A model generated the notes under the pieces. That model had not been told where the DNA came from. It did not search any database and was given only the letters and a program-made list of their open reading frames with translations. From assembly GCA_963666215.2 (NCBI GenBank), contig CAXWPL010000001.1, positions 224,001 to 288,000 on the forward strand: a stretch of DNA of 64,000 nucleotides, read 5' to 3'. Origin of the DNA: Acidobacteriota bacterium (GTDB lineage: Bacteria; Acidobacteriota; UBA890; WLXD01). The position numbers and the translations under genes are program-made. Below, piece after piece: positions 11,673 to 64,000 of this stretch (the first letter of the stretch is position 1; each line of letters begins with the position of its first letter).

Positions 11673-11738
11673 ACAAGCATCGAACGCCCGACACAGGCCG
11701 TCACCTTGGTCGGCAAATCAGCTGCGGCAGCTCGCACA

Positions 11739-12706: not shown

Positions 12707-14002
<1,296 letters not shown>

Positions 14003-14003
14003 C

Positions 14004-15046: not shown

Positions 15047-15236
15047 ACTAGCGCGCGCGCCTGACCGGGTAGCGAATCGGCGCTACACTGGCTGCCTGCT
15101 CAAGGGGTGGAGGAGTGAGTCGGCCGATGCCGCTGCCATGGCGCGCTAGCGCGCGCCAACGCGACGGTGATCGTCGAATTCATGAAACACTGGAGCGTTC
15201 GAGACCTTCAGGACATTCGAACCAAAAGGGGCCCGC

Positions 15237-15908: not shown

Positions 15909-15949
15909 GCCGGGACCAGGCGAGCTCAGGCGACCGCACGGCCACGCGC

Positions 15950-17539: not shown

Positions 17540-17629
17540 AACGTATTCTGAAAGATCCTGCGGTGAGCCTGAGCCCGCATCGGCATCGATCTTTCTCGAG
17601 GACTCCACACGCTCCGCAGGGATAACCGC

Positions 17630-19183: not shown

Positions 19184-19704
19184 TCGACGTTACCCTTTCG
19201 ACCGACGATCGGCCGACCCGGTACCTTATTGAGCGGCGTGGCGATCGACTGCACGCGTTTCGAGTCGCGGAAGATAGCAAGATCTCCGACGAGATCGAGC
19301 TTGATTTCAGCATGCCCGAAGCGAACCTCTACTCGCTTCTCGTCCAGGAGCACTCGTACGAGGTCTACGTAAGCGAGGCATCCGGCGAAGAGGACGAGCT
19401 CGAGGTTCATGTGCTCAGCCGAATTCTCCGCCTTCGGGCTGTAGACGCTCGACGACCGCGTGCCAGGCTAGAGGCAGCCGACGTCAGCGGTGCGGCTCGC
19501 ATCTTGGCTCCGATTCCCGGACGCGTGGTCAAGCTGCTGCAACAGCCCGGAGCGGCGGTGCGGCGCGGCGACGGGATCATCGTGCTCGAGGCCATGAAGA
19601 TGGAAAACGAGCTCAAATCACCGCGCGACGGGGTGGTCGCCACGATCGAGGTCGAAGAGGGTCAGGGGGTCGAGGGCGGCAGCCTGCTGGCGATCATCGA
19701 GTGA
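19177..19704 (+). CDS. Biotin carboxyl carrier protein
   Basis: Biotinylation motif EAMKMENE; ATG at 19177 overlaps the end of the biotin carboxylase gene. Confidence 0.92.
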   Translation: MLIDVTLSTDDRPTRYLIERRGDRLHAFRVAEDSKISDEIELDFSMPEANLYSLLVQEHSYEVYVSEASGEEDELEVHVLSRILRLRAVDARRPRARLEAADVSGAARILAPIPGRVVKLLQQPGAAVRRGDGIIVLEAMKMENELKSPRDGVVATIEVEEGQGVEGGSLLAIIE

Positions 19705-22700: not shown

Positions 22701-24977
22701 CTCGCCGAGGCCGGCTACAGCCTGCCCGCTCAGGTCCGAATGACGGGAGCGGCTCTGCTGCGTGGCAAGGGCCAACTGGGCGGCCAGGCCACTCTGAGTG
22801 ATTGGACCGGTAACCTGGAGGTCGAGGGCCTGCGATTCGACCGCCCCCCAGATCTGCTGTTCAGCGCCCCGCACCTTGAAGTCACGCTGGCCGACGACCG
22901 CTTGCAGGCTACGGCGCAGATCGTCTCGGACGCCGGCGATCTCGAGTTCGGCGCGGGACTGCAGCTTGCCGATCGATCGCTCGAAGGGCACTTGAGCGGC
23001 AATGTTGACCTTGCCGCGCTCGCCAGCTTGACGCCCGGCGTCGACGCTGCCGGCAGCGTCGACGCACACCTGACGCTCGGCGGCACGCTGGATGCTCCGC
23101 GCGGCGACGGCGAGCTGACCATCAGCGGCTTGACGCTGGGCTCAGAGGGCATGCCGTACAACCTCGAGGAGGGCGCCGCCACGATCAGCATGGCTGGCGA
23201 CATGCTGCTCCTCGAGGTGATGGAGGCGTCGGTCTCGGGCGGCCGGCTGACCGGCTCTGGGAGCCTGGCGTTGCGTACCTTGCTTGCAGCGGCGCGAGGT
23301 GAAGCTGCGGGAGTCACCGAGGATTCGGTGGCCGATCCAAGGGCTGCGGGCCATATCGATCTCCTCCTCGAGGCGCTGCCGCTCACACCTCTGTTGGCAC
23401 GCTGGCCAGCCGCCGCACGCCTCATCGACGACGGCGAGGTGACCGCCAGCGCGACGCTCGAGGGCAGCGGTCTCGACTGGCGCGCCTATCGCGGTGGAAT
23501 CGATGTCACGCAACTGCGACTGCGCATTGGCGAGTACAGACTCGGCCTCGATTCAACCGCGAGTGCGCGGCTGGCGGCTGGCGTCGTTCATTTCGACCCA
23601 CCTGCGGTGCTCACGGGAGCCGGCACCCACCTGACGCTCGCCGGGCGCCTGGTCCTGTTCAACGAGCCCGGCGAGCGCCGTGGCAGGATCGAGGGGAACG
23701 ACGAGCGGAGCACGGAGCTGGTGGCTACAGGCGTGATCGGACTCGATCCGTTGAACGCACTGAGTCCGACCTGGGGGATCGGCGGCCGAGCCACCACCGA
23801 CCTACGTATCGTCCGCGGCGGAGGTGCCGGCGATTCCTTTGCACTGCTCGGTAAGGTGCACATCGCCGACGGCGTAGTCAGTCCGCCACCTCTGCGGCAG
23901 CCGATCACCCGCATCGCCGCTGACCTCACGTTCAACGGCCGTGAGATCACGATAACGGACCTTACCGGCGAAACCGGCGGCGGCTCCGTCGCCAGTAGCG
24001 GACGCGTTGTGCTGCCGCCCAACGAGCGCGTCGCGTTTTCTTTCACCACCCGCTTCCGCGAGGCGCTCCTACGGCTCGAACGAGACGTGCGAATCGTGGC
24101 AAGTGCCGATCTGCAGCACGACGGTACGAGCGAACGGTCGCGGTTGTCGGGGCAGATCACGCTGCATGAGGGCACGTATCGCCGCGATCTCGAGGCCGAC
24201 GACGCGATCCTCGAGATTCTCGAGGCACCCGAAACCGAGTCCGACCCCCTACTCGCGACCGTCGATCTCGACCTCCAGGTTGACGGCGCCGGCGACTTGA
24301 TCATCGAGAACAACCTGGCTGAGGTCGAAGTCTCGGCCGACCTCGACGTCCGAGGCACGCTCGACGAGCCGGTCATTCTCGGGCGCTCGGTCCTTCTTGA
24401 AGGTGACCTCCTTTGGAACGGCAACACCTTCGAGATTGATCGCGGCACCGTCGAAATGAACAACCCGTTCGTCACCGAGCCCGTCTTCGAGATTCGCGCC
24501 CGCACGACGGTGCGCAGCTATTCGGTCGACCTGACCTTCTCTGGGTCGTTCCAGCACGGGGTCAAGTTCTCGTATACCTCTACGCCGCCGTTGTCGGACC
24601 TCGATCTCGTTAACCTACTGGCGTTTGGTGAAGAGCCTGGAAGTGCGGCACTCCGAGAGCGTTACGAGGCCGCCGTCGGGCTGCAGGCAACGAGATACCT
24701 CACCGACCAGTATCTGGCGCAGGTCGAAGAGGGTGCCCAGCGGATTTTCGGAGTCGATCGGTTCCGCCTGGCGCCTACGCTGGTTGGTTCGCGTACCGAC
24801 CCGTCTGCACGGCTGACGATTGGCAAGCGCATCGCGCGCGACCTGTACGTTACCTATTCGCGCCTGATCAACAGCGGCGAGGATCAGCTCCTGTTGGTCG
24901 AGTACCAGCTCTCGCCAACCGTGCGTATCACCGGGATCCGCGACGAAGATGGGTCCCTAGTTGTGTTTTCTAAGTAG
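19701..24977 (+). CDS. tamB: TamB/AsmA-like translocation module protein; C-terminus disrupted by IS481
   Basis: N-terminal TM, long beta-rich body, DUF490-like C-terminal region, tamA downstream; the last residues VVFSK are IS-derived and the native tail lies at 26015-26050. Confidence 0.88.
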   Translation: MSDSGANKTPRSDADRRTAAGANEGFRARSRERPRRRWSWLAAVPFIAFLAAWAVLESRFAAEPLRRLVENRAAELLGGGRVEIGKLDFDLLPLRIELTDLRVWWTLSIDGAPRGDTGAVVPGQSETTPTLRADRLAARIAASSLLRQRIEFLAIELDRPHIHLDSDDGRTARATDPDDLGDLVSVLDSEVGPPDASPGFEVVVQQVVVTDGTVEINHRPARLQGELGGIELRIASLEAASGAAGASRASGPAAGAKRGSLSVARGSLLLGDPDTPTAKLVSVRFETEIVRRDRSGGFDVESMLLEIGSSRLEGSGSAADVANGELAVRGEIDLAELFRHWSPPWPGSHSGLASIDGRVELSDGLPRFEGRLTTARAVVADLPLLDVATEVELAPHTIALRELTARLLGGSLRGSLEVQLERDRPAALSVDYELAEVDAARLSRWQPLQGWRFAGALAAVGQASWSTPWRQTLTGNGTITVGALEAHPTTNDFVATGSEAAVAVDASTDRSTFGRQHPTPALPLPAHAAASYRMRAGAVLIDSAELQLPGSRLCASGRVGGDRQLLLALDIETSDLRSLDELVAQIRTPSSPPSNSLVPAVSTDSTQATPPAGASASVGRIPTGGQLASIGPRAQRLGLRGVGRAELRVTGTTAAPQIAGSVMAQSLSIRQTVVGTLEARLRTEQNHLRLSDLRLRQASGEVTGVGAFRLGGSTGDASASPEELGNDDFELRLNAVRYPLRTRISVGDERRDVAGAFDGSVEVRGSYSRSRETPNDIRRDSTAGSWTALFNLTASDFRVDGSTLGLAAAEGTAAPGIWNIRALQLNGPIAKGRGRLTISPGLVDLETNFEHVDLAPALALGLPSSEIAARGSIGGTVRLAGAPHALSGMARLHADDLVLGGVALGALQLGATAGSGLFSLRAVGSAPPTSSSSIASPALPPRATTVTAIPNLPAAPDSAWTAAAIVATVSSAAEPSAASELVGWPTTVHARINGDVARALLAEAGYSLPAQVRMTGAALLRGKGQLGGQATLSDWTGNLEVEGLRFDRPPDLLFSAPHLEVTLADDRLQATAQIVSDAGDLEFGAGLQLADRSLEGHLSGNVDLAALASLTPGVDAAGSVDAHLTLGGTLDAPRGDGELTISGLTLGSEGMPYNLEEGAATISMAGDMLLLEVMEASVSGGRLTGSGSLALRTLLAAARGEAAGVTEDSVADPRAAGHIDLLLEALPLTPLLARWPAAARLIDDGEVTASATLEGSGLDWRAYRGGIDVTQLRLRIGEYRLGLDSTASARLAAGVVHFDPPAVLTGAGTHLTLAGRLVLFNEPGERRGRIEGNDERSTELVATGVIGLDPLNALSPTWGIGGRATTDLRIVRGGGAGDSFALLGKVHIADGVVSPPPLRQPITRIAADLTFNGREITITDLTGETGGGSVASSGRVVLPPNERVAFSFTTRFREALLRLERDVRIVASADLQHDGTSERSRLSGQITLHEGTYRRDLEADDAILEILEAPETESDPLLATVDLDLQVDGAGDLIIENNLAEVEVSADLDVRGTLDEPVILGRSVLLEGDLLWNGNTFEIDRGTVEMNNPFVTEPVFEIRARTTVRSYSVDLTFSGSFQHGVKFSYTSTPPLSDLDLVNLLAFGEEPGSAALRERYEAAVGLQATRYLTDQYLAQVEEGAQRIFGVDRFRLAPTLVGSRTDPSARLTIGKRIARDLYVTYSRLINSGEDQLLLVEYQLSPTVRITGIRDEDGSLVVFSK

Positions 24978-26050: not shown

Positions 26051-28894
26051 ATGCTCGGAGCCGCAGCAGTCGCAATCTGGGCGCTGGTCTCGGCCACCGT
26101 CAGCGGACCGCCGCCGGCTGCGACCGCGGCCAGGGCTCCTTGGACGCCCACAGCGGCCTCGACCACGGGCGCCGCCGCGCGGCAGCTGCCGTCAGAACGA
26201 GTGGCCGCGATTTCCGTGGATGCGCCGAGCGCGGGGCTCGAGCGTTCCGCCGTCGAGGCCATCGTTCAAGTCGTTGGCGCGCCATACAGCATCGACGCCA
26301 TCCGCGACTCGCTGCAGAACCTGCTGGCACTGCCCGACATCGCCGACGCACAGGTCATCCGATCCGACCACCCGCGGGGCCTCCACCTGACCTTTGTCGT
26401 GTCGCCACAACCGCGGTTGCGACAAGTTCATCTGACTGGCGACGTCCCCGTGTCGAAGTCGCAGCTACGGCGCTCGCTTTCGATCGCTCCCGGCGACCCT
26501 CTTACCGAGGAACGGATCTGGGCCGAAGCCGAGCGACTCCAGCAGGCTCTCGCCGATCGCGGGTACTCACTGGCGTCGGTAGAGCCTCGTGTGCTGATCG
26601 CTGGCGACCCGACGCTCGGCACCCTCGCTCTGGCGGTGAGCCCAGGCACGCTCACGCGGCTCGGGGATTTTCAGATACAGGTCCAGATCCAGGACGACAT
26701 CCGGGGCGAGATCCAAGGCGAGACCGGGGGGCTCGACCAGGGAGAGCTCCGAACCACGCTCGGGATCGACTTCCGGGCCGGCCAACCCTATCGCCCGGAC
26801 GAGCTCGACCTCGGAATCGAGCGGCTGCAACGCTTCCTCATCGAGAAGCACTACTTCTTTGCACGCGTCGCCGTGCTCGAGCAGGCAATCGACCTGCAGG
26901 CGAACATCATGGACCTGGTGATTGGAGTTGAGGCCGGGCCAGTCGTCGACTTCGAGGTCACCGGACTCGACCAGCCGGAGGACGAGCTGCATGAGGTGCT
27001 CGCCGTTTTCGAGTTCGGCACTGTTGACGACTGGGCGCTCAAAGACTCCCGCCACGCCCTCGTCCGCAATCTGCAGCAACAAGGCTACTGGAAGCCGCTC
27101 GTCTCCTACAGCCGCGAGCGCGACGAGCAGGGTCGCAACGTCCGAGTACGACTCCGCGTGCTACGCGGACGGCAAAGCAAGTTGCAGAAGATCGAGTTCG
27201 TCGGCGGCGGGTCCATTCCGGAATCCGTTCTGCGTGCCGCGATACGGAGTCGAGAGAGCGGTTTCCTGAGCTCAGCGCGCTTCGTGAGCGAGTGGTGGAG
27301 TGAGGACCAACGCGCCATCGAAGCACTGTACCGCCGCAACGGCTACCTCGAGGCGCAGGTGGTCGACTCGGCGGTGATCAACGATCCAGAGCTTGGCGGG
27401 TTGCTCGCAAGGGTGGAGATCCGCGAAGGAGATCGTACGGTCGTCGCTAACGCAAAGATCGGGGTGGAGTCGATCTGGACGACAGCAGGAGTCGACACCG
27501 AGCGGCTGATCCAGGAGCTGCAGCTGCGACCGGGCGAGCCCTTCAACCCCCGCTGGGTACGACGTGACGCCGACCGGCTTCGCTCGCTGCTGGCCAACAC
27601 CGGCTACAGGCACGCGTCCGTAACGGGCGTGTACGAGCTCACTGAGCCCGGAGCCGTGATCACGTACGCCGTCCAGCCGGGCGAGCGCAGCCGTGTCGGC
27701 CGCGTGCTCGTGGCGGGAAATTCGACAACCAAAGCGGACGTGATCCGTCGAGCCCTGACCTTCGTTCCCGGGTCTCCATACTCCCTCGCCGACATCCTCG
27801 AGAGTCAGAGTCGGCTCTACCGACTGGGAATCTTCGACCGCGTCGACGTGCGCTCGGTGACGCCAGAGCACGCCTCCAGCGACCCGACGCTACTGGTAGC
27901 GGTGCGCGAGGCGCCTCGCATGTTCGTGGGCTACGGCGGCGGCATCGACAGCGAGGAGGGCGCACGAGCTCGCCTGTCTCTGGGACACGACAACCTCTTC
28001 GGACGTGACCTGCAGGCATCCGTGAGCACACGCCTGTCGTTGCGCGAGCAACGCGTGCAAGGACTCCTGGTGGAGCCCTACCTGTTCGGCCACCGCCTCG
28101 AGTCGACGTTGAGCGCGTACTTCGAAAGCGACGTCGAACAGTCGTTCGACGTCGAGAGGCTCGGTGTTTCGTTCCAGATCCTCAAGCGCCACACCCCCAC
28201 GCTCACCAGCAATCTGCGGTACACATATCGGCGCGTGAAGACGCTCAACGTCGACATCGATCCGGCACTGCTCAAACCTGAGGACCGCTCGACCACGGTC
28301 GGTGCCCTGGGCTACACGTTCATTCGCGATACCCGCCCCGACCCCATCGACCCGCGCGAGGGCATGTACCACACAGCCGATGTGGAAATCGCGACGGGCG
28401 CACTGGGCTCTGCGACCAACTTCGCGCGACTCTTCGGGCGCTCGTTCTTCTACCAGGAGCTCGGCGGAGGAGTTGTTCTCGCCATCGCGCTGCGCGCCGG
28501 CCTCGAACTGCCGTTCGGCAACGACGACTCGGTGCCGCTAGCGGAGCGCTTCTTTGCAGGCGGCTCTGTGACACTCCGCGGCTTCGGCCTCGACGAGGCA
28601 GGGCCACTCGACGTCAACGGCCGGGCGGTGGGCGGAGAGGTGCTGCTGATCGGCAACGTCGAGCTGCGAGTACCCCTCCGAGACAAGATCGGCGGCGTTC
28701 TGTTCGCCGATTTCGGCAATGTTTTTTCCGACCTCAACGGTGTCACACTCGGCGAGATCCGCGAGACGCTCGGCTTCGGCCTGCGCTACCACACGCCGGT
28801 CGGGCCGGCGCGAATCGACGTCGGAAGGCTAATCGACCGGCGCGCCGGTGAACGGTCGTTCCGACTCTTCGTGTCGATTGGACATACTTTCTGA
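26051..28894 (+). CDS. tamA: Omp85-family outer-membrane assembly factor (TamA/BamA-like, multiple POTRA domains)
   Basis: POTRA-like repeats, ERFFAGGSVTLRGF loop-6 motif, GFGLRYHTPVGPARID, terminal IGHTF. Confidence 0.88.
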   Translation: MLGAAAVAIWALVSATVSGPPPAATAARAPWTPTAASTTGAAARQLPSERVAAISVDAPSAGLERSAVEAIVQVVGAPYSIDAIRDSLQNLLALPDIADAQVIRSDHPRGLHLTFVVSPQPRLRQVHLTGDVPVSKSQLRRSLSIAPGDPLTEERIWAEAERLQQALADRGYSLASVEPRVLIAGDPTLGTLALAVSPGTLTRLGDFQIQVQIQDDIRGEIQGETGGLDQGELRTTLGIDFRAGQPYRPDELDLGIERLQRFLIEKHYFFARVAVLEQAIDLQANIMDLVIGVEAGPVVDFEVTGLDQPEDELHEVLAVFEFGTVDDWALKDSRHALVRNLQQQGYWKPLVSYSRERDEQGRNVRVRLRVLRGRQSKLQKIEFVGGGSIPESVLRAAIRSRESGFLSSARFVSEWWSEDQRAIEALYRRNGYLEAQVVDSAVINDPELGGLLARVEIREGDRTVVANAKIGVESIWTTAGVDTERLIQELQLRPGEPFNPRWVRRDADRLRSLLANTGYRHASVTGVYELTEPGAVITYAVQPGERSRVGRVLVAGNSTTKADVIRRALTFVPGSPYSLADILESQSRLYRLGIFDRVDVRSVTPEHASSDPTLLVAVREAPRMFVGYGGGIDSEEGARARLSLGHDNLFGRDLQASVSTRLSLREQRVQGLLVEPYLFGHRLESTLSAYFESDVEQSFDVERLGVSFQILKRHTPTLTSNLRYTYRRVKTLNVDIDPALLKPEDRSTTVGALGYTFIRDTRPDPIDPREGMYHTADVEIATGALGSATNFARLFGRSFFYQELGGGVVLAIALRAGLELPFGNDDSVPLAERFFAGGSVTLRGFGLDEAGPLDVNGRAVGGEVLLIGNVELRVPLRDKIGGVLFADFGNVFSDLNGVTLGEIRETLGFGLRYHTPVGPARIDVGRLIDRRAGERSFRLFVSIGHTF

Positions 28895-50293: not shown

Positions 50294-50382
50294 GGAGGGA
50301 TGGCTGAGTCAGGTTGAAGGCGGCGGTCTTGAAAACCGTTGACCGCTCACGCGGTCCGAAGGTTCGAATCCTTCTCCCTCCG
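50294..50382 (+). tRNA. tRNA-Ser(TGA)
   Basis: GGAGGGA/TCCCTCC acceptor stem, anticodon loop CT-TGA-AA, long variable arm, GGTTCGAATCC, G discriminator. Confidence 0.95.
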
Positions 50383-50444: not shown

Positions 50445-50533
50445 GGAGGGGTGCTAGAGTGGACGAATAGGGCGGCCTGCTAAGCCGTTGCACGGGTCAC
50501 ACTGTGCCGTGGGTTCGAATCCCACCCCCTCCG
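50445..50533 (+). tRNA. tRNA-Ser(GCT)
   Basis: GGAGGGG/CCCCTCC acceptor stem, anticodon loop CT-GCT-AA, long variable arm, GGTTCGAATCC. Confidence 0.95.
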
Positions 50534-52760: not shown

Positions 52761-53861
52761 TCAAAGCGAGCCGGCGTTTCTGTACCAAGCGGCGGTCAAC
52801 TCGAACCCTCGGCGAGCTTCGATCTCAGCAGTCATGCCGATCTCGGCTGCGAGCTTGTCGACGCTGCAGACAAAGCCTGGCGCGGTGAGCTCTCGGTAGC
52901 GCGAGCGGTTCACCAAGCCGGGAGTGCCGAGCAAACGCCCTTGAAGCTCGCCGAGCTGAGCGAGCGTCCAGAGCACTGCGCGAGGAACAGGAATCTGCCG
53001 GATCGTTCGCGGTGAGCGGACCTGGCCATCGGGTCCGCGCGACCGGTCGAGAGCGCCGCTGATGAGCTCTGCGAGCTGGCCCTGGGTTACGGGATCAGGG
53101 TGACCCAGGAAGAATTTCTGGTGCAGCGCGGGACCGTTGGCGAGAACCGATTCAGCGATTGCTACGAGCGCCGCGGTGACGTCGTCGACGTGGCCGAAGG
53201 TATACGCCGTATTCGGGTCGCCGAGAAGCGGCACCAGCCCGCGCTTGCCGGCCTGGAATAGAGCGAGAAAGTCCTTGTCGTGTGGGCCGTACACGGCGGG
53301 CGGACGAGCGACAGTCCAGCGCAGGCCGTCGACTCGCTCCACGGCGCGTTCGCCGGCGAGCTTGCTGCGACCGTAGAGACTCACCGGGGCTGGCGCATCG
53401 GTTTCGCGCCGTGGTCGTGCCGGGATCCCTGGGCCGGCCGCGGCGAGGCTGGATACCAGCACGAAGGCGGCCTCGGCATCTCGCGCGGCAACCGCTGCCT
53501 GGCGCGCACCTTCTTCGTTGACCGCGCAGAACTGCTCGTAGCTCACCGCGCGCGTCAGCCCGGCCAGATGAAATACCACCGTCGCCATCTCGCACGCCGG
53601 TGCCATGGCGCCGGCGGCGAGCTCGGCGTCGAACCTTGCCACTCCGGCGGGCAGCGGGTTGCGGCTCGATCGTCGGACGGCCGCGCGCACCGCCCAGCCC
53701 TGCGTAATCAGCCTCTCGCACAGATTCCAGCCGATGAAACCGGTTGCGCCCGTCACGAGAGCGACTCGCTCCGCGTTGCCGCGCGGGCGTTCCTGCCCGA
53801 AAGGTCGGTGGGTCGCCCGCCCCACGTCGCCCCCAGTACAGCCGTCGGGACCCGACGTCAT
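52761..53861 (-). CDS. cerR: NAD-dependent epimerase/dehydratase-family SDR, probable ceramide reductase
   Basis: VTGATGFIG, VSSLAA, YGRSK, RPPAVYGP; the CerR assignment rests on coupling to the bcerS-like and spt-like genes. Confidence 0.7.
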   Translation of the reverse strand: MTSGPDGCTGGDVGRATHRPFGQERPRGNAERVALVTGATGFIGWNLCERLITQGWAVRAAVRRSSRNPLPAGVARFDAELAAGAMAPACEMATVVFHLAGLTRAVSYEQFCAVNEEGARQAAVAARDAEAAFVLVSSLAAAGPGIPARPRRETDAPAPVSLYGRSKLAGERAVERVDGLRWTVARPPAVYGPHDKDFLALFQAGKRGLVPLLGDPNTAYTFGHVDDVTAALVAIAESVLANGPALHQKFFLGHPDPVTQGQLAELISGALDRSRGPDGQVRSPRTIRQIPVPRAVLWTLAQLGELQGRLLGTPGLVNRSRYRELTAPGFVCSVDKLAAEIGMTAEIEARRGFELTAAWYRNAGSL

Positions 53862-55000
53862 CGCAGCCGTTTCTCGTAGAGCCGGTAGGTCTTGGTGTGC
53901 TCACCACCGACGATACGGATCGCCTTCGAGATCCCTTCGTTCTCTTCCAACGTCCACGAACACTCACCCAGCGTGTACCCCAGGGCCCTGGCACGGCGCC
54001 ACGACTCTGTGATCAACAGCAGCTCGAGCCCCTTCTTGCGGAATTCCGGCAGCACACCGAGAAGCAGCATGCGAACACGATCCATGTAGCGCCTGCGGCG
54101 CAGGAGCCGGAAGATCCCGAACGGCAGCAGGCGGCCGTTCATCGGCTTGAATACCTGATTCAAATCACCGAGCGACAACGAGAACGCCGCCGGGCGCCCA
54201 TCGATGTCCATCATGAGTGCGAGCTCCGGATCGAGAACCTGTTTGAGATCCTTGGCCGCGTGCGCAAACTCCGCTTCGGTGGGGGCCACGAACCCCCAGT
54301 TGTCAGACCAGGCCGCCGAGTAGATCGTGCGGACGGCCTCCACCTCGACACTGAACCGCCGCATATCCAGCGATCGCAGCTGCGGCGGCGGCGTGACGTT
54401 ACGCAAGATACGGCGCTCAATGCGCAGCACCCGCTCGCTGAACTCGGCGGTGAGGTCGACGTTCCAGCTGAGAAGGTCCTTCAGCTTGCTGTAGCCCGCG
54501 GCTTCGAACCACTCCGGGTATTCTGGGCGGTTGTAGGGTGTCATCACGAACGGGTCGGTGCCGAAGTTGTCGAGCTGCAATCCGGCCGTGTCGTTGAGCG
54601 AGGGATTCGCCGGTCCGCGAATCCGATCTCGACCGCGGTCGACAACCCACTTCTCGGCGGCGCGCAGCAGAGCGAGCGCGACGTGCTGATCGGCGGCCTC
54701 GAAAAAGCCGAGCCACCCCGTCTCACCATGTATCTCGTTGTGCCGCGAGTCATCGATCGCGGCGATGCGGCCCACCGGCTCGCGCGAGCCCGACTCGGAA
54801 TACGCCAGGAACAGTTGCGCCTCGCCGTGCTCGAAGAAGGGGTTCTTGGCCGGGTCGATGCGGTCGACCTCAGCAATGAGCAGCGGTGGCACCCAGTTCG
54901 GATGTCCACGATAAATCGAAAACGGAACTCGCACGAAGGCGCGTCGTGCGGAGCGGCCCGCCACCGCCTCGACGCGAACGCCCGCTACCGCGTCAGTCAA
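53858..55000 (-). CDS. bcerS: GNAT-type acyltransferase, probable bacterial ceramide synthase
   Basis: WVPPL, NPFF, GRIAA, GFFE, GP.NPS.N, MTPYN.P.Y, AW.DNWGF, LGVLPEFR, SWTLEEN, YRLY motif series; directly after spt. Confidence 0.8.
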   Translation of the reverse strand: MTDAVAGVRVEAVAGRSARRAFVRVPFSIYRGHPNWVPPLLIAEVDRIDPAKNPFFEHGEAQLFLAYSESGSREPVGRIAAIDDSRHNEIHGETGWLGFFEAADQHVALALLRAAEKWVVDRGRDRIRGPANPSLNDTAGLQLDNFGTDPFVMTPYNRPEYPEWFEAAGYSKLKDLLSWNVDLTAEFSERVLRIERRILRNVTPPPQLRSLDMRRFSVEVEAVRTIYSAAWSDNWGFVAPTEAEFAHAAKDLKQVLDPELALMMDIDGRPAAFSLSLGDLNQVFKPMNGRLLPFGIFRLLRRRRYMDRVRMLLLGVLPEFRKKGLELLLITESWRRARALGYTLGECSWTLEENEGISKAIRIVGGEHTKTYRLYEKRLR

Positions 55001-56207
55001 TCACGCGATGCCGACGACCCACATCGGCGAAGACCGCGAGACCCTCGTCGATTTCCTCGCGGCTGTGGCTGGCGTTGACCGCCGTGCGGATCAGGCACTG
55101 TCCGTCGGGGACGCTTGGCGGCAACGCCGGCAGCGCGAAGATCCCGGCGTCCCAGACGCCTTTCCAGAGCTGCAGCGTGCGTGCCTCGTCGCCAATCGAC
55201 ACCGGGATAATCGGCCCTTCAGAGGTCAGAACGTCGAAGCCGAGACCACGGAGACCGTCTCGGAACTGCCCGATCCGATTCCACAGCGTCTCGCGATGCC
55301 AGGGCTCACTAGCGACAATCTTCACGGCGCGACTGGTGATCGCCACCTGCGCAGGCGGCAGCGCCGCGGTAAAGATAAAGGGTCGAGCAACGCACTTCAC
55401 GAAGTCCACCACTCGAGCGTCGCCTGCCACGAAGCCGCCCACCGAGGCGAATGCCTTGGAGAACGTGCCGATAATGAGGTCAACCTCTTCTTCGAGGCCG
55501 AAGCGCTCGGAAGTACCACGGCCGTTGGCGCCCAGCACTCCGGAGGCATGGGCATCGTCGACAACGATCCGCGCTCCGTAACGCTTGGCCACGTCGACGA
55601 TGGCCGGCAGGTTCGCGACCGAGCCACTCATCGAGAAAACGCCGTCGGTAACAACCAAGCGACCACCGCGTTTCCCTTCGTCGCTCCGCAGTAGCCTTTC
55701 GAGATCCGCGATGTCGTTGTGCCGGTACTTGCGTAGCTTGCCGAACGAGAGGCGCGCCCCGTCGAAAAGGCTGGCGTGATTCTCGCGGTCGAAATAGAGA
55801 ATGTCGTGACGATCGGCAAGTGCCGTGATCACGCTCAGCGAGCCCAGGAAGCCGGTGCTGAACGTCAGCGCAGCTTCCTGGTTGAGGTAGGCCGCGAGCT
55901 CGGCTTCGAGAGATTCGTGCAGCGCCAAGGTGCCGTTGAGGAAGCGCGAGCCGGTGCAGCTGGTGCCGAACTCGTCGAGTGCGGCGGTGCCGGCGCGGCG
56001 CACTCGTTCGTCCTGCGACAAACCCAGGTAGTCGTTGGAGCCCATCATTAACATGCTCCGTCCCTCGACCGTCACGCGGTTGCCGTCCTGGCCTTCGAGC
56101 GGCTTGAAGTACGGAAACAGCCCTACGTCGCGCAGGTCGTTGGCGCGCGAGAAGCTGCGCGCCTTCTCGAAGATATCGACGGTTCGAGTTGCCGTGTCGG
56201 TCGTCAT
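54993..56207 (-). CDS. spt: Alpha-oxoamine synthase, probable serine palmitoyltransferase
   Basis: PYFKP, GSNDYLGL, SCTGSRFLNGT, NHAS, DGVFSMSG, DDAH, GTFSK; operon context. Confidence 0.8.
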   Translation of the reverse strand: MTTDTATRTVDIFEKARSFSRANDLRDVGLFPYFKPLEGQDGNRVTVEGRSMLMMGSNDYLGLSQDERVRRAGTAALDEFGTSCTGSRFLNGTLALHESLEAELAAYLNQEAALTFSTGFLGSLSVITALADRHDILYFDRENHASLFDGARLSFGKLRKYRHNDIADLERLLRSDEGKRGGRLVVTDGVFSMSGSVANLPAIVDVAKRYGARIVVDDAHASGVLGANGRGTSERFGLEEEVDLIIGTFSKAFASVGGFVAGDARVVDFVKCVARPFIFTAALPPAQVAITSRAVKIVASEPWHRETLWNRIGQFRDGLRGLGFDVLTSEGPIIPVSIGDEARTLQLWKGVWDAGIFALPALPPSVPDGQCLIRTAVNASHSREEIDEGLAVFADVGRRHRVID

Positions 56208-56398
56208 GAACATGTGCTTCCGCGCGGTCGCGGTAGCCCAACCTGGAGCGCGCGAGTTGCGCACCCGATCCAAGTCGATAACCGCTACGCAGCAGCCGAT
56301 AGAGGGATCGCGTCTCGTATGAACCGTAAGACGATGCCGCTAGTGGAGTGAAACAGCAACTCCCAGGCGCCCACTAGGGTACGCCCAATGCCAAGTGG

Positions 56399-57094
56399 CT
56401 AGTGCGCCGAGTCTGCGGGTTCGGCCCGGAGTTCGGCGATGCGGGCTTGTAATCGCCCAATAACCTCCTCGACGCTTTCCTCCTGGAGCAAGCGCCGGAA
56501 CCGAGTACGCCACCCCCGAACCGTATTCGAGCCATCGAAAACGTAGTTGACGATCATCCAGCCGCTGTCCGATCGGCGCAACTCGTAGTCGAGAGTGAAC
56601 TCCTCGTCGTCATAGTACGCCAGCGTGTTGACAGTGGCAGTGTCGATTTCGACCTCTTCGCCGATGTACTCGAAACGCTCGGCGCGATAGCGACCGAGGC
56701 TCTTGACCGAGCGCACCCGCAGCAGCTCGGCGAACGTGCTGCCGAACTCCGCGCACACTGTCGGGTCGGCGGTACAGAGCTCGCCAACCGCCGCTTCCGA
56801 CATGGCGGCGAAATCGGTGACCCCGTCCATGATTTGGTAAACCTCCGCTTCGGCTTCGGGGGCCAGCGCGTCGGAGTCACCGAACTTGGCGAGGATCGCA
56901 GCGTTCGAGCCGCGCACCGCGTCGAGCGGCGTGGTCGCCTCAACGGCTGCCTGTGCCACCTGGGCCCCCAGGGCTACGTGCCCGCGCCCGCGCGTCGTGA
57001 CCGGACTCGCCAATACGAGCGCGCAGGTCAGTAGGGCGAGAGCGGGGGTGGTTCGACTTGGAAGCCTTCGGTTACGAGCTTGTCGCGTTGCCAT
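56399..57094 (-). CDS. MlaC/Ttg2D/HpnM-like periplasmic lipid shuttle
   Basis: Signal peptide, DFAAMS, EF..F.ELL, LDYEL..GWMIVNY..DG..RTRF..LL pattern of the MlaC family. Confidence 0.75.
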   Translation of the reverse strand: MATRQARNRRLPSRTTPALALLTCALVLASPVTTRGRGHVALGAQVAQAAVEATTPLDAVRGSNAAILAKFGDSDALAPEAEAEVYQIMDGVTDFAAMSEAAVGELCTADPTVCAEFGSTFAELLRVRSVKSLGRYRAERFEYIGEEVEIDTATVNTLAYYDDEEFTLDYELRRSDSGWMIVNYVFDGSNTVRGWRTRFRRLLQEESVEEVIGRLQARIAELRAEPADSAH

Positions 57095-58508
57095 TCTCAA
57101 CCCATGTCAAATAGAGATCGAAGTCGCCCAGAACAAACGCCAGCTCGACCAGAGCGATCCTGAACTCATACTCCTGCGCAACCACCTGGGCCCGCAAGCG
57201 ATAATCCTGCCTGTAGGCCTTGACGAGCGGCTCTGCCTCGCCGATGCCCAGGTCGAACTCGTCGGCGGCCGCGCGTAACCAGCGCCGGGATACCAGGCGC
57301 GTTTCGATCACCGTGTCGAGCAACATGCGACTGCGGGCAAGCTTCGCGTATGCGGCTCGGACGTCGAGCTCGACCTTCATCTGCAGCGCTTGCGCCCGCG
57401 CCTCGGTGGCGTCGCGTTGGATCTTTCTGCGCGTGTACTCGATGTCGTGCTTGGCGAAGTTGAGATCCCAACGGGCCCCGAGCGCAGCCCCGCCCTGGCG
57501 GTAGTTGAACGAGTCGAAGGCGAACGGGTTCGTCTGGTCGTCGCGGTTCGGCGCGTACGCCAGCCGGAAGCCACCGCCCACAACGATCAGCGGCCAGCGC
57601 TCGCTGCGCGCCTGATCCATCGCCGACCCGAGGGCGTCCACGGCGGCATGTAATGCTCTCAGCTGGGGGCTAACACGGGCAGCCCGCGCCACGAGGCCCG
57701 CCACGTCGTCGGCCGACAGCGCTGACTCGGGCGCCTCGTCGACGACTGTGAACAACGCGTTATCGGCAAGCCCCAGGAAGGTCGCTAGCGTCCGACGCAC
57801 GAGACGACCCCCGTCGAACGCCTCCTGGTACACCTTCTCGATCTCGTAGCGGCTGCTCTGGACTTCGTACGCGTCGTTCGGATCGATCGCGTCGTCAGCA
57901 AGCTTTTCCTCGATCTGCTCGAGAATCTCCTCGTAGGATTGTCGCAGGTCCTCAGCGACCTCGAGCGCCGCTTCGGCCGCCGCGAGGCCCCAGTAACCCT
58001 TGATAACCTCGAGGCGAATCTCGTTGCGGGCCTGGTCAAGCCTCGCTTCCTCGGCACTGAGGGCGCCGCGCGCCGCTGCGGCGGCGTTCGAGATACGCCC
58101 AAATCCGTACAGCGGAATCTTGAAGCCGATGTCGAGCTTGACGAACGGGCCGAAACTGCTGAAGGCGTTGGCGGAGTCGGGCGAAAACACGGGGTTGCCG
58201 CGAGCCTCGGGCACCGCGCCGCCCTGTGCGTTGAGAGTGAACTGCGGCAGGCTCCAAAAGCCGTCGAACCGCTGTACATCGAGGCGCGTCCTCTCCACGT
58301 CGAGCTCGTGGGCGCGAGCCAGCGGACTGTTCGCCATCGCCAGTGCGAGAGCACGCCGCACGGTGAGCTCGGTGCCTGGGCGATCCGCGGAGCGAGCGCC
58401 ATGATCCGGAGCTTGTGCAGACGCCGAACCGCCCCAGCCCAGGCAAACTGCCGCGGCGCTTGCAACAAGCAGACTGGGCGCGAGCATGATGGATCTTGGG
58501 AGTCGCAT
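57072..58508 (-). CDS. TolC-family outer-membrane protein
   Basis: Signal peptide, LTVRRALALAMANSP, two outer-membrane-efflux-like repeats (LPQF..IPLY.FGR..V.KGYW and SP.L..WP..ARW.L..V..AY). Confidence 0.85.
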   Translation of the reverse strand: MRLPRSIMLAPSLLVASAAAVCLGWGGSASAQAPDHGARSADRPGTELTVRRALALAMANSPLARAHELDVERTRLDVQRFDGFWSLPQFTLNAQGGAVPEARGNPVFSPDSANAFSSFGPFVKLDIGFKIPLYGFGRISNAAAAARGALSAEEARLDQARNEIRLEVIKGYWGLAAAEAALEVAEDLRQSYEEILEQIEEKLADDAIDPNDAYEVQSSRYEIEKVYQEAFDGGRLVRRTLATFLGLADNALFTVVDEAPESALSADDVAGLVARAARVSPQLRALHAAVDALGSAMDQARSERWPLIVVGGGFRLAYAPNRDDQTNPFAFDSFNYRQGGAALGARWDLNFAKHDIEYTRRKIQRDATEARAQALQMKVELDVRAAYAKLARSRMLLDTVIETRLVSRRWLRAAADEFDLGIGEAEPLVKAYRQDYRLRAQVVAQEYEFRIALVELAFVLGDFDLYLTWVENGNATSS

Positions 58509-58865
58509 GTGCACAGCCGGCGGAAGGCCTGAGGGCGGCGGGCCAGAGAAACTCACCCTACCATTCGGCGCTGGCAGTGGACCGCCCGCTCACGCCGGCC
58601 GTATTCTGGCAACCAAGCCCCCGCGAGCAAACCGGGCCGCGACTTGACGGCCCCCTGCCCGTCTAAGAGGCTTTGCCGCAAGAAGCGTGCAACTCAAACC
58701 AGCCCCGGTACCGATGCGCGCTCGAACTCGCGAGTCTCGGGCTCGCACCCGCCGGCATCTCTAAAGAGGCCGACGCCGGATCCGAACATCCGGCCGCCGC
58801 AACTCGCGCCTCAACCGGCAGCCCTTTGGAGCACTCGTGGCCCTCGCGTCCCCGGTTTTGTCGTG

Positions 58866-61286
58866 ATGCAAGTCCCTCAGCGCCGCAGACGCCACAGGAC
58901 CCTCTTCTACAAGGAGATCCGCGCCATCTGCCGATTCTCGTATCGGCACGCGTACCTCGTGTTCGCCGCATCTCTGGTGCTCTGCGTACCGGCTTTCTTC
59001 GAGGCGCGGAAGATCGGACTCGACACCGACCTCACGCGCTTGCTTCCGTCGAGCAGTGACGCGGTCCGCTGGACCGAGGAGCTCAAGCCGGTTGTGGGCG
59101 ACGGGGGCTACTTCAGCTTTATCTTCGAGGGAAGCGACCACGACGCGCTCGTGCGCACCGTCGAGGAGACCGCGCGGCGCGTTCGGCAGCTCGACGGCAT
59201 CGACGCGATCGACTACCGCTTCCCCGTCGACTTCCTCAACAAGCACCGCTACCTGCTGATTCCCACCGCCCAGCTGCGCGACCTCGTCGATACCGTCGCC
59301 GAGTGGGAAGAACAGGCGAACCCGTTTCTTGACGATCTCGGCCTGGGCGACGAAGAGAGCGAGCCGACGAAGGACGACGACCTCGAGCGACTCATCTCTC
59401 GCTACGGCAACTTTCCCGACTACAACGAGCATCCCGACGGCGGGATGCTGGGCATGCTCGTACATCCGCGCGACGGCATCAGCAACATGGGGGCGGTGCG
59501 CGACATGTATCGCGAGATGGACGCGATCTGTGCCGAGATCGCCGCCGCAAACGGCGTTGCGTACGGCATCGGCGGTTCGCTGCGCAACCGAGTCGACGAG
59601 TTCGACGTTCTCATCGAGGACCTGGGCCGCTCGGGCACGATTGCCGTCCTCGCGATCTTGTTGACGTTGATGATCAGTTTCCGCTCGATACGTGTGCTTC
59701 CGGTACTTCTGTACCCACTGGCGGCCGGGCTGCTGTGGGCGTTCGCCTTTGTCCCCTACTTGGTGGGTGACCTCAACACGATCACGTCATTCCTGTTGAT
59801 GGTGCTGTTCGGGATGGGGGTCGACTACTCGATCCATCTGGTCAAGCGTTTTCGCCTCGAGATCGCGCACCGGGATGAGCTCGACGCGCTGATCGAGACC
59901 TTCACGTCGACGGGCCGTTCGGTGGCGACCTCCGGGGTAACGACCGCGCTGGGCCTGTCGATTCTGGCGATCTCCGATTTCCGCGGATTCTCCGACTTCG
60001 GCAGAATCGGCGGCAGCTCGATGATAATCGTGACGTTGGCGATGCTCTTCCTGATGCCGGCCATCTTGATTGTCGGCAAGCGCTGGGGTCTGGTCACGGC
60101 GCGTGTCCCCAACCTGCCCAGCAAACACCTGGCGCTGCCGCCTCGCTGGGCCGCGGCTACGGTGACGGCGCTCGTCCTCATGTCGGCCGGTGCGGGAATG
60201 ACCTGGATGAGCTTCGACTACGACTTCACCAAGGTCAGCACCTCGCTACCGGAGACCGAGGTCATTCAACAGAAGGAGCGCGACATCTATCCCTTCTTTT
60301 TCGGCCCCGCCGCGGTGTGGGTCGCCCCTGACCTCGAGACCTTGGACAGCGCGCTCGACCTCCTGTACACGGCGCGAGGCGAAGAGAACACGCCTATTGG
60401 CGCGATCTCCAGCATGCGTGACTTTGTTCCGTCAGAGAGCGAACGTCGAGAGCGGCTTCAGCTGTTGTCGGAGATCAAGGAGATCCTCGGCGGACGCTGG
60501 GTGCGCAGGGTCGAGGATCCGGATCGACTGCGGGCGATTGAGGATCTGCAGGCCTGGGTCGCTCCAGACGAGCCCATCACGGTGGAGGATCTACCTGCTT
60601 CGATTCGGCGCGGGCTCGAAGCACGCGACGGCTCCGGCGAGCTGATGCTCGCCGCCAACGTCAACGGCCCGGTTCGCGACGGCCAGCTCAGCATGCGGTT
60701 CACCGAACGTATCTACGATCTCGACATGCCCGCCGCGCTGCGTGGCCCCACGGGCGAGAAGCCGGTGCTCGCCGAGATCCTCTGGCTGGTCACGAGACAG
60801 GCGCCCCTCATTGTCGGACTCACGCTCATCGGCGTCTTTCTGCTGGTCGCGCTGGATCGCCGCTCGCTGCTGCAAACGGTGTGGGTACTGCTGCCGCTGG
60901 TCTCTGGGCTGATCCTCACGTTCGGCGTCTGCGTGGTCTTTGGCTGGAAGCTCAACTTCCTCAACATGGTCACTCTGCCAGCACTGCTGGGGATCGCGGT
61001 CGACCATGGGATCCACTACTACCGCCGTTGGCGCGAGCTCGAGCGCGACACCGCCACAACCCAGCGCGAGCTCTTCGAACCCATCACCGTGAGCACTCTG
61101 ACGACGATCATGGGTTACGCCGGCATGGCCTTCGCTCGCCACCCCGGGCTGCGCTCGATCGGTCACCTCGCGATCGTCGGCCTCGTCTGCACATGGCTGA
61201 CCGCGCTGATCCTTTTGCCCGGCCTGCTCGGCTGGCGCGCGCGCCAGAGGACGGGAGCTCCGTCGAAGACTGCTACCGTCGGCTAG
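58866..61286 (+). CDS. MMPL/RND-family transporter (HpnN/MmpL-like lipid exporter)
   Basis: Two TM bundles separated by periplasmic domains; GMGVDYSIHL and GIAVDHGIHY motifs; LDTDLTRLLP. Confidence 0.88.
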   Translation: MQVPQRRRRHRTLFYKEIRAICRFSYRHAYLVFAASLVLCVPAFFEARKIGLDTDLTRLLPSSSDAVRWTEELKPVVGDGGYFSFIFEGSDHDALVRTVEETARRVRQLDGIDAIDYRFPVDFLNKHRYLLIPTAQLRDLVDTVAEWEEQANPFLDDLGLGDEESEPTKDDDLERLISRYGNFPDYNEHPDGGMLGMLVHPRDGISNMGAVRDMYREMDAICAEIAAANGVAYGIGGSLRNRVDEFDVLIEDLGRSGTIAVLAILLTLMISFRSIRVLPVLLYPLAAGLLWAFAFVPYLVGDLNTITSFLLMVLFGMGVDYSIHLVKRFRLEIAHRDELDALIETFTSTGRSVATSGVTTALGLSILAISDFRGFSDFGRIGGSSMIIVTLAMLFLMPAILIVGKRWGLVTARVPNLPSKHLALPPRWAAATVTALVLMSAGAGMTWMSFDYDFTKVSTSLPETEVIQQKERDIYPFFFGPAAVWVAPDLETLDSALDLLYTARGEENTPIGAISSMRDFVPSESERRERLQLLSEIKEILGGRWVRRVEDPDRLRAIEDLQAWVAPDEPITVEDLPASIRRGLEARDGSGELMLAANVNGPVRDGQLSMRFTERIYDLDMPAALRGPTGEKPVLAEILWLVTRQAPLIVGLTLIGVFLLVALDRRSLLQTVWVLLPLVSGLILTFGVCVVFGWKLNFLNMVTLPALLGIAVDHGIHYYRRWRELERDTATTQRELFEPITVSTLTTIMGYAGMAFARHPGLRSIGHLAIVGLVCTWLTALILLPGLLGWRARQRTGAPSKTATVG

Positions 61287-61433: not shown

Positions 61434-61508
61434 TGGGACGTCGTCCAATTGGCAGGACATACGGTTCTGGTCCGTAGTATCGGGGTTCGAGTCCCTGCGT
61501 CCCAGCCA
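61434..61508 (+). tRNA. tRNA-Gln(CTG); CCA encoded
   Basis: TGGGACG/CGTCCCA acceptor stem, TACGG-TTCTGGT-CCGTA anticodon arm, GGTTCGAGTCC, GCCA end. Confidence 0.94.
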
Positions 61509-62341: not shown

Positions 62342-63235
62342 ATGCCCATACCTGCCCCGCCCTACCTGACCAGGCCTCTCTGCGTCGGTATCACGCTGGC
62401 GGCCGCCTTGGCGTCAACGCCGGCGCCACCAGCCTCCGCGACGCTCGGCAACCCCGCGCTCCGTGAGGCGGCGATGTCGACGGCCACTGCTCCGCCGCCC
62501 GAGTCTTTCTACGAACCCTGGAAGCGAGTGCTCGCCGCCTACGTCGACGATGAAGGCCTGGTCGACTACGCCGGGCTCGCCGCAGGCGGCTGGGCGGAGC
62601 TCGAGAAGTTCATGAAAGTGCTCGCCGACGCCAACCCCGACGCCTTTGCGAACGACGACGAGCGCATCGCGTTCTGGATCAACGCCTACAACGCGGTGGT
62701 GATTTGGCAAGCTGTCGAGCGCTACCCCATTGACTCGGTGCGGGATGTTGGTGCTCTGTGGGGCCTCGTCGGCGGCTTCTTCAAGAACGAGTACCGCGTC
62801 GCCGGTCGCGATATGAGCGCCGACGACATCGAGGACGGCACCCTGCGAGCCAACTGGTCTGACACGCGTATCCACTGGGCGCTCGTCTGCGCCGCTTTCG
62901 GCTGCCCCCGCCTGCTAAATCGGCCGTACCTCGCCAGCGATCTCGACGATGTGCTCACCGAGCGCGCACGCGAGTTTCTCGGGCAGCCCCGCGGCCTGCA
63001 GCTGGACCGCGCTGCCAACACGGTCTACCTGTCGAGTTATTTCGACTGGTACGCCGGCGACTTCGAGGCGGAATCAGGCGATATCGTCAGTTACGTGCTG
63101 CGCTATGCGCCAGAGAGCGACGCCGACTTCATCCGGACTCATCGTGAGCAGCTCCGCGTGCGGATCATGGACTACGACTGGGCGCTCAACGACCAGCCGA
63201 GCGGCCCACGTAGTCGACGCCCGGTGCCGCGCTAA
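62342..63235 (+). CDS. DUF547-domain protein, probably exported
   Basis: GLVDY.GL, AFWINAYNA, DDIE.G.LR, RIHWALVCAAFGCPRL, LS.YFDWY..DF, YDWALND; signal-peptide-like N-terminus. Confidence 0.88.
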   Translation: MPIPAPPYLTRPLCVGITLAAALASTPAPPASATLGNPALREAAMSTATAPPPESFYEPWKRVLAAYVDDEGLVDYAGLAAGGWAELEKFMKVLADANPDAFANDDERIAFWINAYNAVVIWQAVERYPIDSVRDVGALWGLVGGFFKNEYRVAGRDMSADDIEDGTLRANWSDTRIHWALVCAAFGCPRLLNRPYLASDLDDVLTERAREFLGQPRGLQLDRAANTVYLSSYFDWYAGDFEAESGDIVSYVLRYAPESDADFIRTHREQLRVRIMDYDWALNDQPSGPRSRRPVPR

Positions 63236-63286: not shown

Positions 63287-64000
63287 CTAGTGGCCCCGTG
63301 CCCGCGTGAGTCGCCGTAAAGCCCGCGCGGTTGCGTAGTCGGCAGAGGCGCGCATGCGGGCAACCTGGAGGCCAACCGCGCCGTCGCGGAAGCCCTGCTG
63401 GCCAACAAAGCGTTTGAGGAAAGCGACGGCCGGGCGCAGGAGGAGGTAGTACGGCACTTTCGAGAGCGTCACGCGTCGCCCCATGTCGTACCAATCCTCA
63501 GCCGCAAGGCGCGCATAGCGCTCCGATTTCGCGCGGAACACGGCCGCATCGTCGCCGGTGTGGTGATCAACGTGGCCGGACAGCACGGCGCTGCGTGAGG
63601 AATCGTCGAGAACCGCGAACTCGTGGACCCGGCGATCGTCGAAGCGGGCGCGGCCACGCCGAAACAGACGTAGGTGGGCTAGCTTGTACCAGCCTGAGTA
63701 GCGCACCTCGCGGCCGAACAACGTTGTCAACCGTCGTACCAGATAGCCGTCGACGAACGGACTGTCGGTTTCGAGCGCGACCTGGATCGCGGCGGCGAGC
63801 TCGCCGTTGAGGCGCTCGTCGGCATCCAAGAGAAGGATCCAATCGCCGGTCGCCTGCTCGATGGCAAACTGCTTCTGGAGTCCGAAGCGATCGAGGGTTC
63901 GTGACAGAAACTGAGCGCCGTGTCGCACCGCGACTTCGCGCGTAGCGTCGGTGGAGTTGTCGTCGACGATCACGATCTCGTCGGCGAACGGCACCGAGCC
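63287..64000 (-). CDS. GT2 glycosyltransferase, WaaE/KdtX-like beta-glucosyltransferase (5' end beyond the window)
   Basis: DEIVIVDDNSTDAT, QKQFA..ATGDWILLLDADE, RLFRR, VHE, GFRDG. Confidence 0.9.
   Translation of the reverse strand, partial: GSVPFADEIVIVDDNSTDATREVAVRHGAQFLSRTLDRFGLQKQFAIEQATGDWILLLDADERLNGELAAAIQVALETDSPFVDGYLVRRLTTLFGREVRYSGWYKLAHLRLFRRGRARFDDRRVHEFAVLDDSSRSAVLSGHVDHHTGDDAAVFRAKSERYARLAAEDWYDMGRRVTLSKVPYYLLLRPAVAFLKRFVGQQGFRDGAVGLQVARMRASADYATARALRRLTRARGH

Follow-up and report, generated by a model that had tools for sequence, protein, structure and literature searches.

A conserved TolC-like, MlaC-like and MMPL transport module adjoins a candidate ceramide-synthesis cassette in one clade of Acidobacteriota

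We analysed a stretch of 64,000 nucleotides from an Acidobacteriota bacterium (contig CAXWPL010000001.1, positions 224,001 to 288,000), hereafter the window, in which six neighbouring genes bring together a candidate ceramide-synthesis cassette and three genes for transport across the cell envelope. Five of them form a run that encodes a TolC-like outer-membrane factor, an MlaC-like lipid-binding protein, an alpha-oxoamine synthase, a GNAT-superfamily acyltransferase and an extended SDR; the sixth, for an MMPL-type RND transporter, is transcribed divergently from them (Table 1). An original prediction, made by a model from the nucleotide sequence, had read this locus as spt-bcerS-cerR joined to a sphingolipid export system. 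All six open reading frames (ORFs) were found where it had placed them, and the three overlaps that it described are present, measuring 23 nt for tolC/mlaC (29 nt with a TTG start instead of the ATG), 8 nt for spt/GNAT and 4 nt for GNAT/SDR when the likeliest starts are taken. The divergent tolC/MMPL spacer, predicted at about 350 bp, spans 354 bp (58512-58865) with the chosen starts and only 87 bp with the longest ORFs. This six-gene arrangement is more than a product of chance, and it is found in five other acidobacterial genomes.

Table 1. Features of the transport and candidate ceramide-synthesis locus, with positions counted from the first nucleotide of the window
Feature	Position	Strand	Remarks
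SDR (extended-SDR/NAD-epimerase-family reductase; CerR-like candidate)	52761-53861	-	PF01370
380-aa GNAT-superfamily acyltransferase (bCerS-like candidate)	53858-55000	-	Family-level PF00583 matches
Alpha-oxoamine synthase, most likely serine palmitoyltransferase	54993-56213	-	ORF to 56273, likely start 56213
mlaC-like/spt spacer, about 185 bp	56214-56398		Poorly conserved
MlaC-like (periplasmic MlaC/Ttg2D-family lipid-binding protein)	56399-57094	-	ORF to 57100, likely ATG 57094
TolC-like (divergent TolC-type outer-membrane factor)	57072-58511	-	ORF to 58556; likely start 58511, followed by a signal peptide
Promoter-like motif TTGACS-N14-CTARGAGSC, 5′ of the MMPL gene	58644-58671	+	Conserved among relatives
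MMPL (HAE3/MMPL-type RND transporter, HpnN-like)	58866-61286	+	ORF from 58644, likely ATG 58866
DUF547 protein, conserved neighbour	62342-63235	+	PF04784, 1.4e-22
GT2 glycosyltransferase, cut by the window end; conserved neighbour	63287-64000	-	PF00535

The three transport proteins were assigned to their families by profile searches. The MlaC-like protein matched PF05494 in Pfam (1.5e-17; 64.3 bits against a cut-off of 26), and its family profile found 2qgu (1.6e-28), Ttg2D (4fcz, 8.5e-21) and MlaC (8oj4, 7e-14) in the PDB, where the single sequence reached E=0.07 at best. It belongs to a small and distinct subfamily, for which a set of 1.84 billion proteins gave only 58 representatives at E<=1e-30. 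Most MlaC-like orthologues have a cysteine pair (C...C ahead of an EF motif) that may form a periplasmic disulfide and that is absent from the spirochaete group L017-L019. The TolC-like protein matched OEP (PF02321, 2.6e-35; two repeats), and 13 of 13 orthologues matched OEP as well; its family profile recovered TolC from the PDB (2vdd, 1.3e-5, over positions 106-447), a single-sequence PDB search gave no matches, and the protein has a signal peptide and one N-terminal hydrophobic segment (residues 6-27). The transporter matched PF03176 (2.2e-31) and the PDB structure of HpnN (5khn, 7.3e-33), and at 21.5 bits fell short of the ACR_tran cut-off of 28; its first transmembrane segment occupies residues 27-47, and its two soluble loops, each of about 200 aa, have hydrophobic clusters on either side.

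The nearest relatives of the MlaC-like and MMPL families, judged by the best-scoring named models, are the lipid pair HpnM and HpnN. The HpnM model was matched by 16 of 16 MlaC-like members (best 3.8e-17) and the HpnN model by all 26 MMPL family members. The analogy drawn in the original prediction holds, though both window proteins score far under the curated cut-offs, the MlaC-like protein reaching 42.6 of 160.1 bits for HpnM and the transporter 251.6 of 751.85 bits for TIGR03480 and 164.6 of 1100 bits for NF052374. No HlyD-type adaptor was found among the 46 window ORFs scanned, nor was an adaptor gene seen beside the transport genes in any annotated locus of the survey described below, where the sole HlyD gene seen is the partner of an AcrB in L010, distinct from the module. 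The absence of a membrane-fusion gene stated in the original prediction is borne out.

To place these genes in other genomes, a genome scan was made with an alignment of MMPL and its relatives. It yielded 78 MMPL-anchored loci (numbered with the prefix L), which were searched with the window proteins by tblastn and then with hidden Markov models built from the matches. The subfamily to which MMPL itself belongs comprised 22 loci at >=32% identity; L014 and L021 apparently represent a single gene split in two, each half on its own contig of one metagenome-assembled genome. Results showed an MlaC-like gene in 16 of the 78 loci and a TolC-like gene in 15, all within this subfamily, and neither gene in any of the 56 more distant loci, save for a weak MlaC match in L058. 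The three genes usually make up a single operon on one strand, with the order tolC-mlaC-mmpl in seven loci (L007, L011, L015, L016, L017, L018 and L021). The 23-nt tolC/mlaC overlap is identical in the window, L007, L018 and L021, and L001-L003 share it provided that translation begins at the aligned Met; its occurrence in both Acidobacteriota and Spirochaetota suggests translational coupling. These results indicate that the tolC-like, mlaC-like and HpnN-like MMPL genes are a real, conserved and adaptor-less module. One spirochaetal locus, L018, carries tandem MMPL paralogues (7373-9955 and 10016-12523, plus strand) after tolC-mlaC, which are sister branches on the MMPL tree.

The remaining three genes of the block are the candidate synthesis cassette. 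The synthase has the fold of pyridoxal 5′-phosphate-dependent alpha-oxoamine synthases (Aminotran_1_2, PF00155, 6.7e-58). Its PDB matches were headed by bacterial serine palmitoyltransferases (Spt), with 367 bits for 8guh/3a2b, 279 for 2x8u and 265 for another Spt, followed by 263 bits for the top non-Spt entry, of BioF/KBL type, and 244 bits for a cysteate-C-fatty acyltransferase. By this ranking the protein stands nearer to characterised Spt than to BioF, KBL, HemA or CqsA and, because its best matches are all bacterial Spt, about 100 bits over the BioF/KBL enzymes, it is most likely a serine palmitoyltransferase. The 380-aa protein encoded next to it matched no Pfam or NCBIfam family at E<=0.001, reaching only E=0.055 to PF00583, and is counted as a GNAT protein because 27 of the 30 aligned members of its family, the window protein included, matched PF00583 (best 5.5e-11). 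That family is large, with 5520 matches among the candidates scored; a single-sequence search found no PDB relative, a search with the family profile was likewise of no use, and a Protein Atlas search returned only generic GNAT clusters. The SDR matched Epimerase (PF01370, 6.9e-29) as a generic extended SDR, and had weak PDB matches that included NDUFA9 (7ar7_P, 1.1e-7) and NSDHL; other extended SDRs equalled or surpassed the match to NDUFA9. We take bCerS to be an N-acyltransferase of the GNAT type that is encoded with Spt and CerR. A Spt gene with bCerS and CerR as neighbours is used in published surveys as the genomic signature of bacterial ceramide synthesis.

Only L001-L004 and L012, five acidobacterial loci out of the 78, contained homologues of Spt, GNAT and SDR. 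Together with the window these five form one clade on the MMPL tree (SH-aLRT support of 100), nested inside the subfamily. The GNAT gene adjoins both Spt and SDR in all six genomes of the clade, the proteins of the six-gene block share 44-67% identity between the window and its relatives, and the trees of the synthesis genes and of the transport genes broadly agree. The block was kept despite a different upstream flank in L012 and a downstream insertion in L004 and L012. Upstream of MMPL, the motif TTGACS-N14-CTARGAGSC is unique in the window, with 0 occurrences expected by chance; it is exact at the same place in L002, L003 and L004, and variants occur in L001 and L012. Downstream of MMPL, a DUF547-GT2 pair is present in the window and in all five relatives, and this GT2 could decorate a lipid. 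Two Bradymonadales loci (L033 and L034), whose MMPL genes are distant paralogues, also carry a DUF547 homologue (31% identity), about 4-5 kb downstream of MMPL.

Outside this clade the module, or MMPL by itself, has other neighbours. In L011, from Aminicenantes, genes for a nonribosomal peptide synthetase/polyketide synthase (NRPS/PKS), a phosphopantetheinyl transferase, LuxC/LuxE and a phosphatidylserine synthase and decarboxylase lie beside the transport genes, and the cluster may serve to make a lipopeptide or some unusual lipid. This L011 cluster (125-7778 and 12396-21987) also holds a ketoreductase-acyl carrier protein (KR-ACP), a 1919-aa NRPS with a thioesterase, two radical-SAM enzymes and three AMP-binding enzymes. 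Neighbours in L015 are an inositol-phosphate synthase (MIPS), a nucleotidyltransferase and a GT1; L016 and L019 have CDP-alcohol phosphatidyltransferases, L008 has a GT2 and GT1s, L013 a GT1, and L005 PAP2 and GtrA. The homologous GT1 genes of L013 and L015 overlap the MMPL stop codon by 4 bp. On one Aminicenantes contig (L020, 3-1355, plus strand) the C-terminus of the orthologous MMPL is fused in frame to a GT2 that also matches Glyco_transf_21 (3.8e-9), and L008, from the same group, encodes a separate GT2 (12521-13426, plus strand), 59% identical to the fused domain, 140 bp downstream of MMPL. A relaxed Pfam scan of 21 unannotated neighbours of the module added nothing useful. Because the module often adjoins genes for enzymes of polar lipids, these data suggest that it travels with the genes for its cargo; on this basis the ceramide cassette would be the cargo pathway in the clade of the window.

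Our preferred reading is that the module is a lipid exporter whose cargo depends on the lineage, with ceramide, or a glycosylated form of it, as the most likely cargo in the window clade. The gene families, the conservation of the module, its lack of an adaptor gene and the single origin of its link to ceramide genes are shown by the data, whereas the transport steps, the cargo and the enzyme activities are all inferred. We give this reading a probability of about 0.45, and regard a ceramide exporter as a reasonable hypothesis for that clade that rests on a single event. The two modules have stood side by side from the time of the ancestor shared by a single clade of Acidobacteriota. The spt-GNAT-SDR genes would make up a cytoplasmic cassette, most likely producing a dihydroceramide-type lipid: serine and an acyl thioester would yield 3-ketosphinganine, which would be N-acylated before its keto group is reduced. 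The proton-driven MMPL would then extract the lipid from the inner membrane, and the soluble MlaC-like protein would ferry it through the periplasm to the TolC-like protein, which would serve as its acceptor or exit at the outer membrane. In different lineages the same module would serve different polar lipids. A broader proposal is more doubtful, and we hold it to be unlikely. In it, the module would be a new kind of trans-envelope lipid exporter in which an MlaC-fold carrier, in place of an adaptor, links an HAE3 RND pump to a TolC-type channel. This machine would have been re-used for different surface lipids across phyla and, in the window clade, would take sphingolipids out of the inner membrane and into the outer one without need of the Lpt route of Caulobacter.

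Several observations weigh against the ceramide exporter, some touching the link between the genes and others the identity of the cassette. The link arose once and is a single observation; because the five loci and the window form a single nested clade, one change is all that it requires. Homologues of Spt, GNAT and SDR were absent from the flanks of 17 of the 22 subfamily loci, seven of which had about 9-10 kb on both sides and the rest of which lay on shorter contigs. In 11 subfamily loci an orthologous MMPL has an MlaC-like gene as its neighbour, and the flanks examined hold no homologue of Spt, GNAT or SDR; nine of the 11 carry the TolC-like gene as well, and in four the flanks measure about 9-10 kb on either side. 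These 11 loci come from Aminicenantes, Spirochaetota and Rokuibacteriota, at least three phylum-level groups other than that of the window, and several of them have glycosyltransferase or CDP-alcohol transferase genes alongside. As far as linkage goes, the trio thus occurs independently of ceramide genes in relatives, an outcome that the original prediction had named as one that would refute it. The module predates its association with ceramide genes and is found more widely. Synteny in L001-L003 extends to the flanking housekeeping genes serS and gltX, so the block could have been retained merely as part of a gene order that is conserved in general. The spacer between mlaC and spt is poorly conserved among the six genomes and holds one weak hairpin, not above chance; a sigma-70 scan found no promoters, and terminator-like hairpins occurred at chance level. 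The motif upstream of MMPL is repeated neither before spt or tolC nor elsewhere in the window, and we dropped the idea of shared regulation of synthesis and transport genes because the motif occurs only at that one site. Finally, the argument from neighbouring genes draws on lipid head-group or glycosyl enzymes lying within about 2-3 genes of the module in eight of 16 non-clade contexts, a count that follows our own classification and was made without a control set.

An alternative is that the trio moves one non-sphingolipid cargo in every lineage, be it a glycolipid, an inositol lipid or other phospholipid, or a hopanoid-like lipid, and that the ceramide genes are adjacent by historical accident and slow decay of gene order. 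The 11 loci with transport genes and no ceramide genes, the single origin of the link, the synteny of serS and gltX and the lack of a regulatory motif common to synthesis and transport genes all agree with such a single cargo, as does the fact that the closest named models are HpnN and HpnM. A single cargo is harder to reconcile with neighbours that vary by lineage, being NRPS/PKS genes in one, MIPS with a CDP-alcohol transferase, GT1 or GT2 in others and ceramide genes in the window clade. The scores far under the HpnN and HpnM cut-offs and the absence of hopanoid genes from every annotated locus also speak against it, and the six-gene block has outlasted rearrangement of its flanks in L012 and L004. 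On balance we think this explanation less likely than a lineage-dependent exporter.

As to the identity of the cassette, the synthase falls under the curated NCBIfam cut-off for Spt (436 against 640 bits for the best model, NF047600). The SDR has neither a signal peptide nor a hydrophobic segment in the window or in four orthologues (L001-L003 and L012), which begin about 10-20 residues before the Rossmann motif. CerR of Caulobacter is reported to be periplasmic and related to NDUFA9 (JBC 2024), and the lack of a signal peptide, as read from sequence, counts against a match with CerR. The GNAT and SDR proteins are candidate bCerS and CerR by gene context. A linked pair of Spt and GNAT genes well beyond the window clade is pointed to by 17 entries in their top-120 match lists that agree in the length of the longest contig, six of these contigs being under 8 kb; such matches are indirect and can miss or over-count linked pairs. 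The gene identities of the original prediction hold, with the GNAT call the weakest; in its reading of the cassette as spt-bcerS-cerR the PDB ranking supports the first name, and the other two derive from gene context.

Another reading is that the cassette makes an N-acylated amino lipid other than ceramide, for example of the sulfonolipid type or another long-chain-base product, in which case any transport link would concern that lipid. The synthase is under every NCBIfam equivalog cut-off and matches a cysteate-C-fatty acyltransferase strongly in the PDB, at 244 bits, the GNAT family is very broad and unnamed, and the bCerS and CerR assignments depend on context. However, the top PDB matches of the synthase are all Spt, about 100 bits or more above other enzymes, and these three genes together are what has been published as the genomic signature of ceramide synthesis in bacteria. 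We judge a different amino lipid to be improbable. Ceramides themselves have reportedly been found in an acidobacterium.

A role in efflux of, or tolerance to, foreign hydrophobic compounds, as in AmeABCD or the 'toluene tolerance' Ttg2 proteins, instead of in building the membrane, appears just as improbable. A TolC-type channel is typical of efflux, the HAE3 RND protein of AmeABCD works in solvent tolerance with periplasmic proteins that are not membrane-fusion proteins (MFP) and with an outer-membrane protein, and in L007 a gene of the TetR family lies some 6 kb upstream. Yet no regulator is consistently adjacent to the module, its recurring neighbours are lipid head-group and glycosyl enzymes, with one gene fusion, and the solved MlaC-family proteins are lipid carriers by their depositors' names. 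A hopanoid transporter was rejected, given scores under the HpnN and HpnM cut-offs and no hopanoid genes in the window or among the annotated neighbours of the loci.

Other features of the window lie apart from the six-gene block. Envelope-biogenesis genes encode a TamB-like protein of 1758 aa (19701-24977, plus strand) and an Omp85/POTRA protein (26051-28894, plus strand). An IS481-type transposase, with a helix-turn-helix and an rve integrase core, is found among housekeeping genes (14021-15025, plus strand). Two tRNA genes of 89 nt follow serS (50294-50382 and 50445-50533, plus strand) and a third tRNA gene (61434-61505, plus strand) starts 148 bp after the MMPL stop codon; an Rfam scan of the window returned four tRNAs only.

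The path of bacterial sphingolipids through the periplasm and into the outer membrane is an open question. As of 2024, no sphingolipid flippase or transporter was known (JBC 2024), and a 2026 preprint (bioRxiv 10.64898/2026.04.12.717747) reports that LptF2/G2 with LptB are needed in Caulobacter, which covers the inner-membrane step only, and names the periplasmic and outer-membrane steps as open. The same preprint points to an MmpL gene that directly follows spt in Myxococcus xanthus, proposes that sphingolipids could take this alternative route, and states that other taxa may rely on an MmpL-type route. The set of candidates in the window locus is complete, with a pump for the inner membrane, a carrier for the periplasm and a protein for the outer membrane, and it comes from a phylum other than that of Caulobacter. 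The MlaC-like carrier is small and soluble, so that its bound lipid could be read directly. Whatever the cargo, a RND and TolC-type pair with an MlaC-fold protein in place of the adaptor would, if true, widen the known designs of inter-membrane lipid transport. The pairing is conserved across several phyla, and the glycosyltransferase fusions and tight couplings give further routes to the identity of the cargo. Our literature searches found no description of a lipid system built from MlaC-like, MMPL and TolC proteins, which agrees with the statement in the original prediction that no MMPL-MlaC-TolC sphingolipid exporter had been described; as far as these searches show, the TolC, MlaC and MMPL module is undescribed.

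Among known systems, HpnN-HpnM(-HpnS) is similar in pairing a HAE3/MMPL RND protein with a periplasmic protein of the MlaC family, for which a preprint (PMC12324291) sets out a shuttle model of hopanoid trafficking. The window locus differs in that no hopanoid genes lie nearby and the proposed outer-membrane partner is of TolC type, whereas HpnS is an MlaA-like lipoprotein. With the phospholipid transport system Mla (MlaFEDB-MlaC-MlaA) the module shares a soluble MlaC-fold carrier between both membranes; its engine is a RND protein instead of the ATP-binding cassette (ABC) complex MlaFEDB, and the locus has neither MlaA nor MlaD. An MlaE permease gene is present in the window at 373-1158 (minus strand; PF02405, 2.2e-78), separated from the MlaC-like gene by 55 kb, so that a canonical Mla system seems to exist in this genome in addition to the genes described above.

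Like pumps of the AcrAB-TolC type, the module joins a RND inner-membrane protein to a TolC-family outer-membrane factor, but it has no membrane-fusion adaptor and its RND protein is of the MMPL/HAE3 type. Lipid export through a TolC-type protein has a precedent in glycolipid export by DevBCA-HgdD; DevBCA is an ABC transporter with an adaptor, unlike the module here. In AmeABCD of Castellaniella defragrans a HAE3 RND protein is likewise encoded with an outer-membrane protein and with periplasmic proteins that are not MFP, but the accessory proteins are DUF1302, LolA-like DUF1329 and COG4447 proteins and the role is monoterpene tolerance. Sterol transport by BstA/B/C is comparable to the extent that BstA is an HpnN-like RND protein for a membrane lipid, and the window MMPL matches the NCBIfam BstA model at 154 bits; BstB and BstC come from other protein families. 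The LptB-LptF2-LptG2 system of Caulobacter is of the ABC/Lpt type and is unrelated machinery, no LptF/G-type gene having been found among the window ORFs scanned. According to the preprint that describes it (bioRxiv 10.64898/2026.04.12.717747), it shares with the window locus the placement of transport genes within a sphingolipid locus.

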